A stretch of DNA of 64,000 nt, from NCBI GenBank assembly GCA_963789835.1, contig CAWBMF010000004.1, positions 128,319-192,318 of the forward strand. Direction: 5' to 3'. Positions 12,648-21,507 of this stretch are shown piece after piece. Under the pieces are notes generated by a model that made no database searches, was not told where the DNA came from, and was given only the letters and a program-made list of their open reading frames with translations. Source of the DNA: an uncultured delta proteobacterium. Its GTDB lineage: Bacteria > Desulfobacterota > Binatia > Binatales > Binataceae. Positions within the stretch are counted from its first letter, which is position 1. Each line of letters opens with the position of its first letter. The position numbers were made by a program, and so were the translations under genes.

Positions 12648-13550
12648 ATGGCGGGTGTGGAAAGCGGCATTTTGGCTCTTTTTGTGGTCGCATTGTTTGC
12701 GTCGACCGTGAACGGGGCGCTCGGTTACGGGTTCTCGTCGCTGACGGTTCCCCTCGCGCTGTTTTTCTTTCCAAACAAAATTCTCAGCCCGGCACTCGTG
12801 CTGGTCGAACTGGCGATCAACTCGTGGGTGGTGGTGCTGAACCGCGAGAGTTTAAAGGTCGCGCGATGGCGCGCGTTGCCCATCATCATCGGCCTCGTTC
12901 CCGGCATCCTCATCGGCAGCTTTCTGCTGACCCACGCGAACCCGGGCGTGCTCAAGTTCTGGACGTATGTTGTTCTGCTTCCGCTCATTCTCTCGCAGGC
13001 CGCCGGCTATCGGCGACCGATTCGCGCCGAGCGCGCCGCGGGCGTGCCGCTGGGGGTGGGAGTCGGGGTGCTCTACTCGACCACGACTATCTCCGGACCC
13101 CCGCTCGCACTGATGTTCAACAATCAAGGCGTGGAGAAGACTGAATTTCGCGCGGCACTCGGAACCGTTCGAATCGTCGAGACCACGCTTACGACGATCG
13201 TCTACGCCTTCCTCGGGCTCTTCACCTCGCGGAGCATTCACCTGCTGGTGCCGATCGCTCCGGCCGTGCTGCTGGGGCTTCCGCTCGGGACCTACGTGAT
13301 CCGGCATGTGCCGAACGAGGCGTTCCGGCGCGTCTGCATGAGTTTCGATGCGTGGATAGTGGGGTTCGGACTCGCGAGGACGATTCTCGAGCTGCGGCTG
13401 CTGAGCCCGTCGGGAGCCTACAGCATCTGGGGCGCCGTGATTCTTTTCGATCTCTACCTGCTCTACCGCTACTTCGTCATGGGCCACGTTCATGCTCGAA
13501 TCGAAAGCCTCTCTCTGCACGGCACTCCAGCCACAGCCGAAAAAAATTGA
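12648..13550 (+). CDS. TauE/SafE family sulfite/anion exporter-type permease
   Basis: 300 aa with 7-8 predicted transmembrane helices and a duplicated 4-TM DUF81 pattern. Confidence 0.8.
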   Translation: MAGVESGILALFVVALFASTVNGALGYGFSSLTVPLALFFFPNKILSPALVLVELAINSWVVVLNRESLKVARWRALPIIIGLVPGILIGSFLLTHANPGVLKFWTYVVLLPLILSQAAGYRRPIRAERAAGVPLGVGVGVLYSTTTISGPPLALMFNNQGVEKTEFRAALGTVRIVETTLTTIVYAFLGLFTSRSIHLLVPIAPAVLLGLPLGTYVIRHVPNEAFRRVCMSFDAWIVGFGLARTILELRLLSPSGAYSIWGAVILFDLYLLYRYFVMGHVHARIESLSLHGTPATAEKN

Positions 13551-13718
13551 CGAGCGCCCGCGCGCCGCGCCGCTGCCTTCGCACAACGGCGTGCGGCAGC
13601 AGGGATACTCCAAATGGAGGTCGCGCTAGTGATTTGATTTCGAGTGTACTATTGCTCGAAGCGTTGTGACGCTGCGCCCGAATGAACGGGAACTTTGGCC
13701 GGGCCGAGGGGAAGTCCA

Positions 13719-14939
13719 ATGAGCCAGGAACCTTACATACTCATCACCGCAGACACTCACGCGGGCGCCAGTCATGCCGGGTATCGCGAATACCTCGATC
13801 CCCAATGGCGCGAGGCGTTTGACGAATGGCGTGGCGGATACAAGAACCCGTCGCAAGAGCACTACGGCTCCAAGAAGATGCGCAACTGGGATTACGGCAT
13901 CCGCAACAAAGATCAGGACAGCCAGGGAGTCGTGGGCGAAGTGGCTTTCCCCAACACGGTGCCGCCGTTCTATCGCAAGAGTATCGTCACCGCGCATCCG
14001 CCGAAGCCGGAAGATTATCAGCGATGCCAGGCCGGCATCCGTGCGCACAATCGCTGGCTGAAGGATTTCTGCGCCGAGGATCCGATTCGCCGCGCCGGGA
14101 TTGGATTGATCCTGCCCAATGACTTCGACGAAGCGATCAAGGATATCGAGTTCATCGCGAAGTCCGGCCTGCGCGGCGGCGTGCTCCTGCCGCTCATCCC
14201 GCCCGACGCCCACTGGCTGAAGCCGCTCTACCATCCGGCGTGGGACCGCGTGTTCGCCGCCATCCAGGACCATGGCCTCGTGCTCAATCAGCATACGGGG
14301 CAGGGCATTCCGGACTACGGCGAGGGCGTGGTGCCGGAATCGATCTGGATCCAGGACGTGACCTTCTACGGTCAAGCCGGCTTTCGGCATCTGCTGATGG
14401 CGGGCGTCTACGAGAAGTTCCCGAAGCTCAAGTACATCCTGACCGAGTCCGGCTGCTACTGGGTTCCCGCGATACTCAAGCAGTGCGATCGCGCCTACTA
14501 CGCGATCAAATCGGGCGCGCTGGGCGAGATGAACTACAAGGGAATGGAAATGCCGCTGAAGGAGCCGCCGAGCGAGTATGCGAAGCGTCACTGCTACTAC
14601 GGCGCGAGCTTCCCGAGCAACGCCGACCTCGCCGGCATCGACGAAATCGGCGAGGATCACGTGCTGTGGGGCAACGACTATCCTCACTACGAGGGCACCT
14701 TCCCCTACAACCTGCAATCGCTGCGACTTACGTTTGGCTCGATGCCGGACGCGCGCCGGCGAAAGATCCTCGGGCTGAACGCGGCGGCGCTCTACAACTT
14801 CGACCTGGAGGCGTTGAAGGCGCGGGCGGCAAAAGTCGGCCCGACACCGGCGCAAGTGGAGACTCCTCTCCCGCGCGAAGAAATCCCCCGCGACAGCGCG
14901 TGTTATCTCTTCCGCGACGCTCTGCAGGAGGCGTCCTGA
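13719..14939 (+). CDS. amidohydrolase-2 (ACMSD/LigW-like metal-dependent TIM-barrel hydrolase or decarboxylase)
   Basis: Start at the internal Met MSQEPYILITADTHAG with a GAGGGGAAG ribosome-binding site. HYEG and WGNDYPH C-terminal motifs typical of PF04909. Confidence 0.75.
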   Translation: MSQEPYILITADTHAGASHAGYREYLDPQWREAFDEWRGGYKNPSQEHYGSKKMRNWDYGIRNKDQDSQGVVGEVAFPNTVPPFYRKSIVTAHPPKPEDYQRCQAGIRAHNRWLKDFCAEDPIRRAGIGLILPNDFDEAIKDIEFIAKSGLRGGVLLPLIPPDAHWLKPLYHPAWDRVFAAIQDHGLVLNQHTGQGIPDYGEGVVPESIWIQDVTFYGQAGFRHLLMAGVYEKFPKLKYILTESGCYWVPAILKQCDRAYYAIKSGALGEMNYKGMEMPLKEPPSEYAKRHCYYGASFPSNADLAGIDEIGEDHVLWGNDYPHYEGTFPYNLQSLRLTFGSMPDARRRKILGLNAAALYNFDLEALKARAAKVGPTPAQVETPLPREEIPRDSACYLFRDALQEAS

Positions 14940-14942
14940 GCC

Positions 14943-15803
14943 ATGGCGATGCCGGCCGGCATCGGGATAGTCGATACGATGATCGGCTTTCCCGCCGAAG
15001 ACTTTAAGATGTACGACTTCATTCGCGCACAGCTTAAAGACCCTTCGGCGAAGTTCGATTTCCCGGTCGAGTACATGTTCAAGAACGTGCCGAAGGAGTT
15101 GTACGGATCGAAGGATCCGATTTCTCTCACGCTGCACGAGATGGATCGGTTCGGTATCGAGATAGGCGTCATCGGCGCCGGCGGAGACGTCTCGGCCAAA
15201 GCGCTCAAGGACCATCCGGACCGGTTCGTCCCGATGGGCAACGTCGATCCGAACCGCGGCATGGACGGAATCCGCGACATGGTGCGGCAGCACGAGAAAT
15301 ACGGCGTGCGCGCTTTCGGCGCATTCAACGCCGGCTACAATCCGCAAGTCGGCATCTCCGACCCGTTGATGTACCCAATCTACGCCAAGTGCGTTGAGCT
15401 CGGCGTTCCGATCTTCGCCTGCGCCGGAGTCCCAGGTCCGCGCTTCCCGATGTGGCCGCAGGAAGTACGCCTGATCGATCAGGTGATGTACGACTTCCCG
15501 GAACTCGTCTTCGTGACGCGTCACGGCTGCGAACCGTGGGAAGATCTGGCCGTCAAGCTGATGCTGAAATGGCCGAACCTCTACTACTCGACCTCCGCCT
15601 TTGCACCGAAGCATTACCCGGAAGCGATCATCCGCTATGCGAACACACGCGGCGCGGACCGCGTAATCTATGCCGGCTACTTCCCGATGGGCCTCTCGCT
15701 AGAGCGAATCATGACCGACATGAAATCGGTGCCCTTCAGCGACAAAGTCTGGCCAAAGTTCCTGCGCGATAACGCCCGAAAGGTCCTGAAGCTCGACGCT
15801 TGA
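14943..15803 (+). CDS. amidohydrolase-2 family protein (second, shorter paralog)
   Basis: Begins 4 nt after the upstream gene's stop. TIM-barrel amidohydrolase-2 like, but lacks an N-terminal HxH (GIVDTMIGFP instead). Confidence 0.7.
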   Translation: MAMPAGIGIVDTMIGFPAEDFKMYDFIRAQLKDPSAKFDFPVEYMFKNVPKELYGSKDPISLTLHEMDRFGIEIGVIGAGGDVSAKALKDHPDRFVPMGNVDPNRGMDGIRDMVRQHEKYGVRAFGAFNAGYNPQVGISDPLMYPIYAKCVELGVPIFACAGVPGPRFPMWPQEVRLIDQVMYDFPELVFVTRHGCEPWEDLAVKLMLKWPNLYYSTSAFAPKHYPEAIIRYANTRGADRVIYAGYFPMGLSLERIMTDMKSVPFSDKVWPKFLRDNARKVLKLDA

Positions 15804-15911
15804 GGGGCTATGATTCGAATAGGCGGTGCCGCGCGACTGTCTGTTTTGACACGCTTTAGCTTGCCTCTTTGCTGCGAAATGCGATATGAAGGATCCGAGA
15901 GGTCATCGCCG

Positions 15912-16319
15912 ATGAAATCCATGAAATCGATTGCTGTCACCGTGGTCGCGATCGCAGCCCTCTGGACTGCCGGACCTGCCAGCGCCGCAGGCAGAGGTGG
16001 CCACGCTGCCGCCGCTACGCGCGGAGTCGGCAGCGCGAACCGTTTCGCCGGCAGTCGGAATGGAGCGTGGATGAGACAGAACAACCGTCGGTTCGCGACC
16101 TCCTTCGGAGGCTTCCCTTACGGATACGGCGGCTACGGCTACGGGAATGCGGTGTACCAGAATCCCGATGAAGCCGACTGGGCGGAACAGTGGCAGTCGC
16201 TGTACGAGGACAACCACGGCGCCTATGCCAAGTCCACCCTTGAAAATCCACAGGGGCCTGCGCGAATGTGGGAATTTCCGCAAGTGCAGGGGGGCGCGAC
16301 CGTAACCGACGAGCATTAG
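15912..16319 (+). CDS. secreted Gly/Tyr-rich hypothetical protein
   Basis: Signal peptide MKSMKSIAVTVVAIAALWTAGPASAAG. GGFPYGYGGYGYGNAVY low-complexity segment. GAGAGG ribosome-binding site. Confidence 0.5.
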   Translation: MKSMKSIAVTVVAIAALWTAGPASAAGRGGHAAAATRGVGSANRFAGSRNGAWMRQNNRRFATSFGGFPYGYGGYGYGNAVYQNPDEADWAEQWQSLYEDNHGAYAKSTLENPQGPARMWEFPQVQGGATVTDEH

Positions 16320-16387
16320 TCGGATGCGCTGCTTCCGCGGCTCGGCGTCGACCTCAGTCACAATCGATATTTTTTCCCGCATCTAAA

Positions 16388-16437
16388 TAGTGGGCGGGGA
16401 GTGAATCCAACACTCCGACACAACGATTTTTAGTTCC
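16388..16437 (-). repeat. diverged copy of the tRNA-Phe 3' half (distal att-like repeat)
   Basis: TGGGCGGGGAGTGAATCCAACACTCCGACACAACGATTTTTAGTTCCAC versus the tRNA 3' half TGGTGGGCAGGGAGTGAATCGAACACTCGACACAAGGATTTTCAGT. Four substitutions and one insertion. It shares the extra GTTCCAC extension with repeat 2. Confidence 0.7.
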
Positions 16438-16483
16438 ACGTTAACTCCCGACATTTCCAATTCTCCGATTTGCATTAGTGAGC

Positions 16484-16515
16484 TATTTGACGCCGTCAAG
16501 CCGCACTGATAGTTG
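16484..16515 (+). promoter_or_regulatory. putative promoter of cassette A (TATTTGACGC -35-like box plus downstream AT-rich -10 candidate)
   Basis: The same 10-mer TATTTGACGC occurs at the equivalent position upstream of cassette B. A GGGAGG ribosome-binding site lies ~12 nt before the ATG. Confidence 0.35.
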
Positions 16516-16552
16516 AGTCGCGACCGCATTTTATCGGGAGGATGGGTAGAAG

Positions 16553-17020
16553 ATGAATCTGAGAGGGAATCTGGGGAGAATCGCGCTGGCAGTGGGGATG
16601 CTTTTGGTCGTCTCCGGGCCGGCATCGGCAAAATCTAAAAAACAGATTTGCTTCGAGGTAAACTCAAACGAATACCTTTTCGTCGGGAAAATTCCTGGGA
16701 AAAACAAATGCGCCTCGTTTCAAACGGTTGACACGTTCGGCATTTTCCCGGGGTTTATGTCAAACGGTGCAGCCTGTGAAAGCGGGGATGGGTCCACGCT
16801 GTTCTTTACAGCCTCCGACGGCTACTTCTCCGGGCCGGAAACCGTTCAGGGATCACTCGCTACCAGTACCGCTACAGGATCCTGTGCAGATTGTGTCGTC
16901 AGTACCTGCTTCGCGGATACTTGTTCCTTGGTCTTCTGTTCCGGGCAGACGATACCGGCGGACGTGATGTCTGGTCCCGCGAGCCTCTTGTCGAGAGGAT
17001 CATCGATGGGCGGCAACTGA
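16553..17020 (+). CDS. small secreted Cys-rich protein (cassette A)
   Basis: Signal peptide. 10 Cys in the mature part. GGGAGG ribosome-binding site. Weak but recognisable similarity to the cassette B protein (K-C-A-S-F-Q-T vs E-C-I-S-F-G-T; G-A-A-C-E-S-G-D-G-S vs Y-G-C-A-C-D-P-K-G-S). Confidence 0.55.
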   Translation: MNLRGNLGRIALAVGMLLVVSGPASAKSKKQICFEVNSNEYLFVGKIPGKNKCASFQTVDTFGIFPGFMSNGAACESGDGSTLFFTASDGYFSGPETVQGSLATSTATGSCADCVVSTCFADTCSLVFCSGQTIPADVMSGPASLLSRGSSMGGN

Positions 17021-17047
17021 CACTCACCGCGGAATCCTCAAGGTCGG

Positions 17048-17081
17048 CACCGACTGGAGTGTGGCTCCTTTCCAGTCGGTG
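17048..17081 (+). terminator. perfect 10-bp stem-loop downstream of cassette A gene
   Basis: CACCGACTGG..(14-nt loop)..CCAGTCGGTG. A T-run (CTATTTTTTTT) lies ~45 nt further downstream rather than adjacent, so intrinsic-terminator status is uncertain. Confidence 0.4.
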
Positions 17082-17143
17082 CCCGGCCTGGCGATTCGCT
17101 GCGCTGACCAGCTCTCTGACAATCTATTTTTTTTCGGGTCTGC

Positions 17144-17189
17144 TGGTGGGCAGGGAGTGAATCGAACACTCGACACAAGGATTTTCAGT
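17144..17189 (-). repeat. 46-bp perfect direct repeat of the tRNA-Phe 3' half including CCA (proximal att-like repeat)
   Basis: Identical to 18219..18264 (anticodon loop through CCA of the tRNA-Phe gene). Confidence 0.85.
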
Positions 17190-17435
17190 TCCACTATAAG
17201 TCATCCACCATTGTCCGTAAGTTGATTCTATCGACGCTTTCTCAGCAGAGGCAGTCCGCCAAAGTGCGCAATGCCCGCCGATGTTCATCGGCTAGGCTGC
17301 ACCTAGACTGCAGACCCGAGGTTCGCGACACCCGCCTCCGTAACGAATCGCGCGCGTAGAACAGATCGAAGAATACGCAACTGGGCGAAGTGTGGTAGCA
17401 GCGCCGGGCGGCATTGCCGCGAGCGTAGCTCGGGT

Positions 17436-17470
17436 TATTTGACGCAAGCGTGGCGGAATGACATATCAGT
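17436..17470 (+). promoter_or_regulatory. putative promoter of cassette B (TATTTGACGC box)
   Basis: Same 10-mer as upstream of cassette A. GGGAGG ribosome-binding site 11 nt before ATG 17492. Confidence 0.35.
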
Positions 17471-17491
17471 GCGCTGGGAGGAATCAAAACA

Positions 17492-17929
17492 ATGCGTAGA
17501 TCAGTCAGTCTGTTGGTAGTGACATTCTCCGTCTTCGCGGTGAGTTTGCTGGCCATATCGTTCTCGGCCAACGCGGGCGGCAATTGCGAGGGCAAACTTC
17601 TCGGCAACTCTTACGAATGCAACTACGTAAACAGCGAAGGCGGTTCGGGGAGCGAATGCATTTCGTTTGGCACCGGGGTGTTCTCGGTTCATTTCGACGC
17701 CGGGTACGATGGCACAGACGAATATGGTTGCGCATGCGATCCGAAGGGCTCCAAGAAATCGCCTTCGTTCAACGCTTCTTCAAACACCTACCAGTGCACG
17801 TCCCCCTCATCTCCTTCTTATTTGCTGAGTGGAACGATAAAGGGCAAAAAGGTTACTGAACAGGGCCTTGAATCGGACGGCTTCCAATACGTCGAAACCT
17901 GCGAGCTCAGGTCTTCGCCTTGCCCCTGA
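17492..17929 (+). CDS. small secreted Cys-rich protein (cassette B)
   Basis: Signal peptide MRRSVSLLVVTFSVFAVSLLAISFSANA. 9 Cys. Paralogous to the cassette A protein. Confidence 0.55.
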   Translation: MRRSVSLLVVTFSVFAVSLLAISFSANAGGNCEGKLLGNSYECNYVNSEGGSGSECISFGTGVFSVHFDAGYDGTDEYGCACDPKGSKKSPSFNASSNTYQCTSPSSPSYLLSGTIKGKKVTEQGLESDGFQYVETCELRSSPCP

Positions 17930-18218
17930 CCTGAATCGAGACCATTTCGGCTAAGGCGGAGAAAGCCGGGTCTTGCCTAGGCGCAGTTCGGCGAAAGAGG
18001 CGTGTCGCAGGCGGGCGTCCAGCGTCCACTCCAGGAAGTCGATGCGACGACTATCCGCGGCTTGAGCCAGCGGCACGCCTTCATCTTGTCGGCTGTGACC
18101 CCGGTTCCCCAGCGGCCTTTCGACGCATCCGGCAGATTTGAGAATGGACACGCGGCCGGTTTCGAGGCCGTAGGCTGCAACTTAGGCTGCGGGACTCCCT
18201 CAAAAGGGCAAAAAGTGT

Positions 18219-18294
18219 TGGTGGGCAGGGAGTGAATCGAACACTCGACACAAGGATTTTCAGTCCTTTGCTCTACCGACTGAGCTACCTGCCC
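18219..18294 (-). tRNA. tRNA-Phe (anticodon GAA), CCA encoded
   Basis: Reverse complement folds as GGGCAGG-UA-GCUC AGUCGGUA GAGC A AAGGA CUGAAAA UCCUU GUGUC GAGUG UUCGAUU CACUC CCUGCCC A CCA. Very close to E. coli tRNA-Phe in the D and T arms. Confidence 0.9.
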
Positions 18295-18369
18295 ACCGTG
18301 ATTGGCCGCGTTCGCGGTGAGGCGAACCTTCATTCGTACCGATGATTGATGCGCCTTGCAACGGCTCGC

Positions 18370-19374
18370 TTAGCGCTTGAGCGCCGCCACTCGCGACTCG
18401 ACGAAATCTATAACCTTGCCCTCCAGGTTCGCGCCGTCGAGCCGGTCGATCTCCTGCACTCCGGTCGGACTCGTCACGTTCACTTCGGTCAGGTAGTCGC
18501 CGATAATGTCGAGGCCGACGAAGTACAGGCCGTCGCGCTCGAGCCGCGGCTTCAGCATCGCGCAGATTTCGCGATCGCGCTCCGTCAGCGGCGCCTTCAC
18601 ACAATTGCCGCCGACATGGATGTTGCCGCGATTCTCGTCGTCGCGCGGCACCCGCAGCATGCATCCGAGCGGCTGGCCGTCGAGCACGATCAGCCGCTTG
18701 TCGCCGATGCGCGCCTCCGGCAGATAGCGCTGCGCCATGATTAGCCGCGACTCGAACTGCGTCACCGTTTCGAGAATCGTGCCGATGTTGCGATCCTTGG
18801 TCGTCACCAGGAACACGCCTTCGCCGCCGTGCCCGTCGAGCGGCTTGACGATCATTTCGCCGCCCTGCTCGTCGAGAAAGGTTTTCAGCCGCGGAATTTC
18901 ATAGGTCACCAGCGTCGGCGGAATCGCGTCGGGAAAATTCAGCGCGTAGAGCTTCTCGTTGGCCTCGCGCAGGCCCGCCGGATTATTCAGCACGAAGGTG
19001 CGATGGCTGTCGGCCAGGCTGAGCAGCATCGTCGCGTAAAGATAGGCCGCATCGGCGGGCGGGTCCTTGCGCATGAATACCGCGTCGAAGGTCTCGAGGG
19101 GATACTCGCCGGCGTCGTCCAGAAATTTGTAGTGCGGGTCCTTCCGCATCAGTTCGCATCGCCGCGCCCGCGCGATCACATGCGGACCGCGCGCGTAGAG
19201 ATCGCGCAAGCCGAGGAAATAGATCTCGTGACCGCGGAATTGCGCCTCGAGCATGAACACGAAGGTCGTGTCCTTGTCGACCAGCACGCGCTCGAGAGGA
19301 TCCATGATGAAGGCAAATTTATGCGCCTCCCTTTTCCTCACCTTCTGCACCTTCGTCGCTTGACCCTTGCTCAT
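18370..19374 (-). CDS. gshB: glutathione synthetase (prokaryotic ATP-grasp)
   Basis: ..FAFIMDPLERVLVDKDTTFVFMLEAQFRGHEIYF.. aligns to the E. coli GshB N-terminus. The ATP-grasp C-terminal half is present. The start is uncertain: the ORF Met at 19374 gives a 56-nt overlap with rsmE, and the internal MDP Met at 19305 is the alternative. Confidence 0.85.
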   Translation of the reverse strand: MSKGQATKVQKVRKREAHKFAFIMDPLERVLVDKDTTFVFMLEAQFRGHEIYFLGLRDLYARGPHVIARARRCELMRKDPHYKFLDDAGEYPLETFDAVFMRKDPPADAAYLYATMLLSLADSHRTFVLNNPAGLREANEKLYALNFPDAIPPTLVTYEIPRLKTFLDEQGGEMIVKPLDGHGGEGVFLVTTKDRNIGTILETVTQFESRLIMAQRYLPEARIGDKRLIVLDGQPLGCMLRVPRDDENRGNIHVGGNCVKAPLTERDREICAMLKPRLERDGLYFVGLDIIGDYLTEVNVTSPTGVQEIDRLDGANLEGKVIDFVESRVAALKR

Positions 19375-21159: not shown

Positions 21160-21507
21160 CCGCCGGAGTGAGTCGGGCGATCGCTTCCCTTAAGTGGGAA
21201 GAGGAAAGTCCGGGCTCCATAGGGCAGGATGGCCGCTAACGGCGGCGCGGAGCGATCCGCGGAAAGTGGCACAGAAAATACACCGCCCGCGAGGGTAAGG
21301 GTGAAATGGTGGGGTAAGAGCCCACCGGCGAGCGAGCGATCGCGCGCGCATGCCAAACCCCATCCGGAGCAAGACCAAATAGGAGGCTGAGCGGCCCGCT
21401 CTTAAGGCCTCGGGTATGGTCGCATGAGCCGCCGAGCAATCGACGGCCTAGAGGAATGATCGCCGCCCGCAAGGGCACAGAACCCGGCTTACAGACTCAC
21501 TCCGGTC
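21160..21507 (+). ncRNA. rnpB: RNase P RNA, bacterial type A
   Basis: Conserved blocks GGAAAGTCCGGGCTCCATAGGGCA (P4 5' side), GTGGCACAGAAAATACACCGCC, GGGTGAAATGGTGGGGTAAGAGCCCACC, GCAAGACCAAATAGGAGG and ACAGAACCCGGCTTA (P4 3' side). P1 pairing CCGGAGTGAGTC / GACTCACTCCGG. T-run immediately downstream. Confidence 0.9.

Follow-up and report, generated by a model that had tools for sequence, protein, structure and literature searches.

We analysed a stretch of 64,000 nucleotides (the window) on contig CAWBMF010000004.1 of an uncultured soil bacterium of the family Binataceae (Candidatus Binatus), in which two small units, unit 1 and unit 2, lie end to end beside a tRNA-Phe gene (Table 1). The tRNA gene, tRNA-Phe(GAA), is the single tRNA gene identified by ARAGORN and Rfam in the window, and between 15500 and 19000 it is the sole Rfam match at E ≤ 1. 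On its upstream side stands gshB, 86–90% identical to the corresponding gene in Candidatus Binatus metagenome-assembled genomes. On its 3′ side follow unit 2 and then unit 1, each holding one gene for a small secreted cysteine-rich protein and each closed off distally by a copy of the 3′ half of the tRNA. These repeats had been noticed in a first-pass annotation of the sequence, which regarded the units as two tandem cassettes inserted at the tRNA gene. Here we describe the locus, its counterparts in related strains and species (given by their L numbers), and the reading that these support.

Table 1. Features of the tRNA-Phe locus, its neighbourhood and the one recombinase gene discussed in the text. 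Positions are those of the window.
Feature	Position	Strand	Evidence or remark
tRNA-Phe(GAA), intact, CCA encoded	18219-18294	minus	ARAGORN; Rfam tRNA, 74 bits
Copy 2 of the tRNA 3′ half (rep2), distal boundary of unit 2	17144-17189	minus	46/46 identical to the tRNA 3′ half
Copy 3 of the tRNA 3′ half (rep3), distal boundary of unit 1, decayed	16388-16434	minus	local alignment against the tRNA half
Unit 1, the older islet, ~0.7 kb	16435-17143		GC 54.1%
ORF1, 155-aa secreted protein, 8 conserved Cys	16553-17020	plus	22 homologues
Imperfect inverted repeat downstream of ORF1	17032-17097		27-nt arms, 12-nt spacer, 78% complementary
Unit 2, the younger islet, 1,029 bp	17190-18218		GC 56.9%
Distal 8-nt direct-repeat pair TAGGCTGC / TAGACTGC, period 11	17293-17311	plus	repeat search
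ORF2 module, promoter-like region plus gene	17411-17937	plus	homology to other contigs
ORF2, 145-aa secreted protein, 8 conserved Cys	17492-17929	plus	11 homologues
Fragment like the C-terminal end of an ATP-dependent (NHEJ/LigD-type; NHEJ, non-homologous end joining) DNA ligase	17951-18151	minus	Pfam/NCBIfam
Proximal exact 8-nt direct-repeat pair TAGGCTGC, period 12	18171-18190	plus	28 nt from the tRNA CCA end
gshB (glutathione synthetase), chromosomal anchor upstream of the tRNA	18370-19374	minus	Pfam GSH-S_ATP, GSH-S_N
Xer-like tyrosine recombinase, 319 aa	57090-58049	minus	Phage_integrase + Phage_int_SAM_1

The 46 nt at 18219-18264, which are tRNA positions 31 to 76 (the last anticodon-stem base to the encoded CCA), recur perfectly in copy 2, just as had first been reported, and the alignment of copy 2 to the tRNA extends from 17141 to 17189 (49 nt, 98%). 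The third copy was also confirmed, its region giving a local-alignment score of 80 against a shuffle maximum of 24. It differs from the tRNA half by five substitutions, not the four originally counted, and one insertion, and it ends at 16434, since an end at 16437 takes in 3 nt of a neighbouring extension. Among 100 shuffles, none contained even one 37-mer match or three 17-mer matches. All three copies are direct, in the orientation of the tRNA and on its 3′ side. An intact tRNA gene with a displaced 3′ fragment on the correct side and in the correct orientation, identity beginning at tRNA position 31, is the mark of an island in a tRNA gene (tDNA), and the signature of site-specific integration at the tRNA-Phe 3′ half that the first-pass annotation saw is therefore genuine. 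Moreover, the left flank of copy 2 is the same sequence that adjoins the live tRNA directly in the relative L006; copy 2 is the original tRNA end, displaced.

Both units are integrase-less and too small for autonomy, in line with the earlier view. They keep attL and attR as direct core repeats and contain no integration, excision or transfer genes of their own. Their GC content is below background, albeit 54.1% (unit 1) and 56.9% (unit 2) against 62.4% for the window rather than the ~50% against ~66% first put forward. ORF1 and ORF2 (ORF, open reading frame) are real genes, with signal peptides, eight cysteines each and homologues, which bears out the claim of one small secreted Cys-rich gene per unit. 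The 22 homologues of ORF1, all metagenomic, are 61–89% identical to the query and conserve both the cysteines and the signal peptide, and the 11 of ORF2, likewise metagenomic, show 48–99% identity. Neither protein matched any family in Pfam, PHROG or NCBIfam. For ORF2 the prediction is a small beta structure of eight strands, the AlphaFold2 model (predicted local distance difference test, pLDDT, 72) matching generic beta-barrels only, at a template-modelling (TM) score of 0.46 or less; the ORF1 model (pLDDT 47) was too poor for a structure search. Among close relatives the ratio of non-synonymous to synonymous divergence (dN/dS) is 0.4–1.1 for both genes with every cysteine kept, compared with 0.02 for the neighbouring amidohydrolase at similar synonymous divergence (dS). 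This suggests relaxed or diversifying selection, as in surface or effector proteins.

A promoter-like box and a GGGAGG ribosome-binding site had been attributed to each unit. GGGAGG does precede both genes, as does an identical 10-mer, TATTTGACGC, found in the window at 16484 and 17436 and nowhere else, but a scan with the sigma-70 consensus found no promoter at its threshold for either gene. In unit 1 a short distal arm beginning GTTCCAC is followed by ORF1, an inverted repeat and, next to copy 2, a T-rich trailer. Of the two cores that bound the unit, one is perfect and the other decayed, and there are no arm repeats. The inverted repeat is conserved in L006, L007 and L093 and is possibly the terminator of ORF1. 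Directly distal to copy 3, a gene at 15912-16319 (plus strand) encodes a 135-aa secreted Gly/Tyr-rich protein of no family, found among the loci examined in this clade only (dN/dS 0.14–0.3). A candidate fourth, older repeat at 15790-15915, in the gap between the amidohydrolase gene and this gene, was rejected, as its score of 13 does not exceed the shuffle mean of 14. As no tRNA-half remnant lies upstream of the 135-aa gene, there is no evidence of its being an older unit.

Variation in unit number between related strains was looked for and found. Two relatives (L006, L091) have unit 1 only, and in them the sequence flanking copy 2 adjoins an intact tRNA, giving a clean empty site for unit 2. 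Four others (L092, L088, L089, L096) have the same two units as the window. A seventh, L007, whose flanks are 98.7–99% identical to the window in DNA sequence (dS of flanking genes ~0.01–0.05), contains unit 1 with one further unit on its distal side, and its unit-2 slot is taken up by an island of 7.2 kb. Lastly, L093 reads copy 4, the same further unit, copy 3, unit 1 and copy 2, followed by an island (at least 6 kb) that carries TIR and HEPN genes and has an arm of the L007 type. Unit number is therefore one, two or three, and the tRNA-proximal slot is the most variable. Unit 1 was found in every related strain sampled (L006, L007, L091, L092, L093, L088, L089). The further unit, referred to as the p169 unit, carries a gene for a 169-aa secreted protein on the minus strand (L007 9017-9889; L093 54-1640) and is absent from the window, L006, L091 and L092. 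In L093 it is bounded by the fourth tRNA-half copy (54-98). L007 has lost the distal repeat of this unit, and ~31 nt are deleted from within its copy 3. A signal-peptide-like reading frame was read by eye from the sequence at L093 ~225-696.

The island of L007 is bounded on both sides by a perfect 48-nt repeat and encodes an excisionase (PHROG 66) and a 408-aa tyrosine integrase (Pfam Phage_integrase, E = 2e-30). Hence the earlier statement that no integrase lies nearby holds for the surroundings of the array in the window, but a near-identical strain has an island with both integrase and excisionase exactly where unit 2 would be; integrase-bearing elements do occupy this site in the same species. 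The L007 integrase gene (16682-17908, plus strand) overlaps tRNA-Phe (17807-17882, minus strand), its last ~36 codons running antisense across the whole tRNA. As this frame crosses the tRNA, tblastn ‘finds’ the last ~36 residues of the integrase at every tRNA-Phe of the family. A 143-aa protein of L007 was considered as an ORF2 homologue and rejected. In L006, L007 and L092 (contig_* assemblies in ENA), gshB, the amidohydrolases and ORF1 are split by frameshifts; these genes are intact in the window, and the frameshifts are probably long-read sequencing errors and not pseudogenes.

In unit 2 the ORF2 module and a ligase pseudogene fragment lie between a distal and a proximal arm. The region between ORF2 and the proximal arm has a weak but consistent resemblance to a ligase domain, matching Pfam DNA_ligase_A_C at E = 0.007 (profile positions 66–91 of 94) and three NCBIfam ligase models at E = 0.01–0.16; a sequence search of PDB with this fragment gave no matches. 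In other strains it contains an in-frame stop, a frameshift or a 14-aa deletion and is therefore a pseudogene fragment, debris that mutates freely among strains. An ORF at 18002-18235 on the plus strand has no Pfam match.

The arms of unit 2 contain short direct repeats. The 8-mer TAGGCTGC occurs four times in the window against 0.68 expected, with three of the four in unit 2 and on one strand, and its pairs are putative arm-type integrase binding sites. A comparable repeat arrangement, with CTGACACC, is found in the L007 island. The arm itself recurs elsewhere: in L094 a tRNA-Phe half is followed by an arm 82% identical to window 17144-17312, the distal ~170 nt of unit 2, and this arm keeps an equivalent repeat pair (TGGGCTGC / TAGGCTGC). 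Beyond it lies an LRR-GTPase-TIR gene of more than 778 aa, with a different chromosomal flank gene beside it. The arm of unit 2 is thus homologous to that of a larger element, and unit 2 contains pseudogene debris as well. The p169 unit of L093 has the same distal arm as unit 2 and L094. This bears on a short extension, GTTCCAC, which copies 2 and 3 share on the right (the anticodon side) and the tRNA lacks, as the first-pass annotation correctly observed. Given that L094 and the p169 unit have this arm too, GTTCCAC marks the beginning of a conserved distal arm rather than a scar of duplication.

The ORF2 module is the only part of unit 2 common to other genomic contexts, being 92% identical to L002–L005 and 86% to L090, and the homology ends ~80 nt upstream of the ATG and 8 nt past the stop codon. 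In L002, L003 and L090 the ORF2 homologues adjoin integrase genes or fragments (in L090 a fragment of 32 aa) together with a tRNA-Gly 3′ half, so similar att-bounded small units may exist at tRNA-Gly in other Binataceae. The half is a 47-nt tRNA-Gly(GCC)-like sequence (L002 1868-1914, plus; L003 2380-2426, plus; L090 1634-1680, minus), the full tRNA not being called, and in L002 TGTAGGCTGTAGGCTGC is found 75 nt past the ORF2-homologue gene. The promoter-plus-gene segment was observed in at least five contexts (the window; L002, L003, L090, L098, L001, L099), in either orientation relative to a neighbouring integrase. In L098 a ligase-like fragment lies on the opposite side of the ORF2-type gene. 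Distant homologues (~50%) in L001 and L099 are placed between chromosomal genes (Polyketide_cyc2, in L001 also an AhpC-like gene), and no tRNA was called in L001.

Divergence between the window and L092 separates the two units. For the flanking genes dS is 0.07–0.18, and ORF1 falls within this range at 0.15, the non-coding parts of unit 1 being 9–10% diverged. The segment containing copy 3 (16320-16437) is 21% diverged (79% identity), which is neutral-like decay. Going by these values, unit 1 is as old as the lineage and is fixed in every relative sampled. For ORF2, in contrast, dS is 0.01–0.025, about 10-fold below the flanks, and the non-coding parts of unit 2 are 3–4% diverged (range for the unit 1.5–4%), so that unit 2 is younger, or was recently exchanged. 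The tract of low divergence apparently continues into gshB, suggesting that strains exchanged it by homologous recombination rather than by a site-specific route. Between the window and L096, unit 2 is ~91% identical compared with 95.5% for gshB, and the compact form of unit 2 is therefore not brand new. The window and L007 have differing copy-3 regions despite their ~99% identical flanks, which points to allelic exchange. We also considered selection on copy 2 and rejected it, as its perfect conservation is not significantly above expectation given the low divergence of unit 2.

A wider survey covered the tRNA-Phe locus of 80 Binataceae species. Synteny of gshB and tRNA-Phe is kept at ~70 of the 80 loci, and the sequence directly past the tRNA CCA differs in nearly every species. 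An intact integrase is present at tRNA-Phe in at least seven of the 80 (L007, L008, L017, L022, L038, L043, L076), and three others have integrase fragments only (L013, L023, L075). In a further eight (L015, L030, L032, L036, L046, L049, L052, L054) a second copy of the tRNA half lies 0.7–4.5 kb away with no integrase between. The repeats bounding these eight intervals are near-perfect, each interval has one or two genes, and the GC content is mostly below that of the respective genome. Their cargo includes DUF3800, a Peptidase_S74-domain protein, an adenylate cyclase-AAA-TPR protein, an ORF2-like protein (31% identity) and unknowns. Set side by side, the intact, fragmentary and integrase-less loci look like a decay series leading from live islands to islets. 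The longest ORF overlapping tRNA-Phe proved uninformative as a proxy for an integrase, because most integrases stop before the tRNA. Downstream of the integrase of L038, at ~12682-13804, two overlapping ORFs were seen whose translation contains a long Phe run, implying a long T-rich simple repeat.

Taken together, these data make it probable that successive integration at tRNA-Phe, followed by deletional decay, produced two stacked integrase-less islets that resemble cis-mobilisable elements (CIMEs). Of the origins offered in the first-pass annotation, that of remnants is thus the best supported. Under this reading the region downstream of tRNA-Phe would be an integration hot spot in Candidatus Binatus, targeted by a family of tyrosine-integrase elements whose core site would be the 3′ 46–48 nt of tRNA-Phe, from the anticodon loop to the CCA. 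Every integration would rebuild the tRNA with the 3′ half brought by the element, and the old half would be shifted downstream together with all that lies behind it. Two events of this kind are envisaged, unit 1 entering first and unit 2 later into the regenerated tRNA, in which case the 3′ 46 nt of the current tRNA-Phe would have been supplied by the last element to integrate. After each event the integrase, the excisionase and most of the cargo would have been deleted, leaving per unit one expressed secreted Cys-rich protein gene and att-derived ends. Each unit would once have had its own integrase, and a cognate integrase acting in trans could still excise unit 2, which has perfect cores and both pairs of arm repeats.

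Several observations weigh against this reading. Apart from the tRNA-encoded stretch mentioned above, no integrase or excisionase remnants were detected in 16300-18300 by tblastn with nine integrases and one excisionase or by a profile hidden Markov model (HMM). As neither unit has any trace of a recombinase, the proposal that each once encoded its own rests on the relatives. In a metagenome scan, no full-length relative of unit 2 that encodes an integrase and has TAGGCTGC arms came to light at tRNA-Phe, and the L094 contig ends before any integrase. The arm-site statistics are modest alone, some 8-mer with at least three copies occurring in 5.4% of shuffles. Copies 2 and 3 also share ~30 nt on the left, beyond the CCA side (ACAATCnATTTTTTTTC...), which the tRNA lacks, and this fits the simplest model only if the attP of the family carries a trailer-like segment. 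Finally, the integrase-less units with near-perfect repeats in eight other species are explained by rapid decay, but mobilisation in trans would explain them too.

The last point leads to the possibility that the units are active minimal cassettes, that is compact att-bounded units captured and excised in trans by the tRNA-Phe integrases of co-resident islands of the L007 type. Such units would either have lacked an integrase from the outset or have ceased to depend on one. The tRNA-Phe trailer would then be a strain-variable cassette array of a CIME, satellite or integron-like kind. Unit number and content do vary with boundaries exactly at the tRNA-half repeats, a homologous distal arm is common to units with different cargo, and unit 2 retains perfect core repeats with repeat pairs at both ends; the 0.7–4.5 kb intervals of the survey fit in the same way. 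Moreover, the p169 unit is distal to unit 1 in L007 and L093 and absent from closer relatives, which is not simple vertical descent, and unit 2 is precisely missing from L007, yet appears older than the split between that strain and the window. The ~10-fold reduction in ORF2 synonymous divergence between the window and L092 also speaks for it. However, the low-divergence tract, which seems to extend into gshB, fits import by homologous recombination better, unit 2 holds junk in the form of the ligase pseudogene fragment, and L092 and L096 have degenerate versions of its proximal arm repeats. In unit 1, arm repeats are missing and the distal core has decayed. Truncated integrases elsewhere, including the 32-aa stub of L090, show that deletion is indeed the route. 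Scans for the copy-2 junction found only L094 and a duplicate of L089 in metagenomes and nothing in viral contigs; thus no circular junction and no integrase-bearing progenitor were found, nor a second genomic background for the compact unit. On balance we regard active cassettes as rather unlikely.

A more general form of this idea is that the trailer of tRNA-Phe, and perhaps of tRNA-Gly, serves the Binataceae as a gene-capture platform, in which minimal integrase-less cassettes are inserted, excised and reshuffled in trans by tRNA-specific tyrosine integrases of visiting islands. Such cassettes would have one promoter and one gene each and be bounded by tRNA 3′ halves and short conserved arms. 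We consider this proposal unlikely. If true, the platform would create strain-variable arrays of secreted-protein and defence genes, an analogue of integrons built on tDNA att sites.

Local duplication is very improbable. The first-pass annotation had derived cassette 1 from a duplication of cassette 2, and tandem duplication of the tRNA 3′ region would be a variant of this. In its favour are the flanking extensions that copies 2 and 3 have in common on both sides and that the tRNA is without. However, the interiors of the two units have no DNA similarity apart from the repeats, and their proteins are unrelated (BLASTP E = 1.1). Unit 1 occurs alone in L006 and L091 and therefore cannot derive from unit 2. 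It is also the older of the two, with a decayed repeat and a dS equal to that of the flanking genes, and the right-hand extension is the start of the arm that L094 and the p169 unit of L093 combine with other cargo. That derivation is accordingly refuted. Chance similarity, or mis-assembly across the repeated 46-mer, is hardly credible, as nothing beyond the general risk of metagenome assembly speaks for it, shuffles gave no such matches, and the order ORF1, copy 2, ORF2, tRNA-Phe, gshB is the same on independent contigs from other samples and technologies (L088, L089, L092, L096).

The reading as integration followed by decay has close precedents. CIMEs, which have lost their integration and transfer genes but keep attL and attR, and their site-specific accretion were first described for elements related to ICESt1 of Streptococcus thermophilus (Pavlovic 2004; Bellanger 2011, reviewed in PMC5704250), and the published route has three steps, namely integration, decay into a CIME, and accretion (PMC5704250). 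The window would correspond to two CIME-like units, and L007 and L093 to two CIME-like units plus a live island. However, the Binatus units are far smaller (0.7–1.0 kb, a single gene), their cis-mobilisation is putative, the target is tRNA-Phe in an uncultured member of the Binatota, and the parent elements have no conjugation genes in the parts seen. In Dehalococcoides, tandem islands at ssrA are strain-variable and bounded by direct repeats of the 3′ end of the tRNA-like gene; the integrase gene overlaps the target 3′ end, and 15 islands without an integration module were proposed to be CIMEs (PMC3146451). The integrase-less members are a likeness, and the L007 integrase running across the tRNA resembles the overlap of dsiB with its target. 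The Dehalococcoides islands, though, depend on a serine recombinase and a 20-bp tmRNA repeat and are multi-kb islands with rdhA operons, whereas the Binatus elements have tyrosine recombinases, a 46–48 nt tRNA-Phe core and single small genes.

Islands catalogued by Islander have a regenerated tRNA gene and a displaced 3′ fragment at their ends and occur in tandem arrays; an anticodon-centred crossover is the commonest class, and the integrases of Mx8 and SSV extend across attP (PMC4383910). The repeat geometry at tRNA-Phe is this described signature, and the L007 integrase extends across attP as do those of Mx8 and SSV. An own tyrosine integrase is absent from the array in the window and present in the L007 slot and in at least six other species. 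Since the criteria of Islander include an integrase and a minimum length of 2 kb (PMC4383910), both units of the window would be discarded, and such islets go systematically uncounted. A prophage remnant is not indicated, as ORF1 and ORF2 have no PHROG match and the sole fragment resembles a cellular NHEJ-type ligase.

Integron arrays share with this locus small, mostly single-gene units, a repeated recombination site between them and a strain-variable number of units. By contrast, there is no platform of IntI, attI and the promoter Pc here, the integrase queries finding no integrase in or close to the array. In place of attC hairpins the repeats are 3′ halves of tRNA-Phe, each unit has its own promoter-like region (TATTTGACGC) and ribosome-binding site (GGGAGG) where integron cassettes are mostly promoterless, and new units enter at the tRNA end by integration of whole elements. 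An integron-like cassette array is compatible with the evidence but not demanded by it. Integrative mobile elements exploiting Xer recombination (IMEXs) and pdif modules are likewise recombinase-less DNA between recombination sites, are moved by a recombinase encoded elsewhere and can form tandem arrays at one chromosomal site; they differ in using dif-like XerC/D sites.

Elsewhere in the window, the Xer-like protein of Table 1 is the only tyrosine recombinase identified, though not every ORF was scanned against Pfam. It lies 39 kb from the tRNA, and nothing ties it to the array. RNase P RNA class A (Rfam RF00010, 298 bits) is encoded at 21165-21507 on the plus strand, between prmA and a gene for an ArsA-like ATPase.

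The locus cleanly illustrates a known process; it does not reveal a new mechanism. Since standard island finders need an integrase and at least 2 kb (PMC4383910), islets of this kind are probably under-counted. In the Binatota, an uncultured phylum of soil bacteria, hardly any mobile elements have been described, and a tRNA-Phe hot spot with both live islands and decayed islets is documented for this phylum here. The array shows how single accessory genes, in this case for fast-evolving secreted Cys-rich proteins, become domesticated beside a tRNA gene. If the units turned out to be movable in trans, this would make the locus a natural cassette array based on tDNA.

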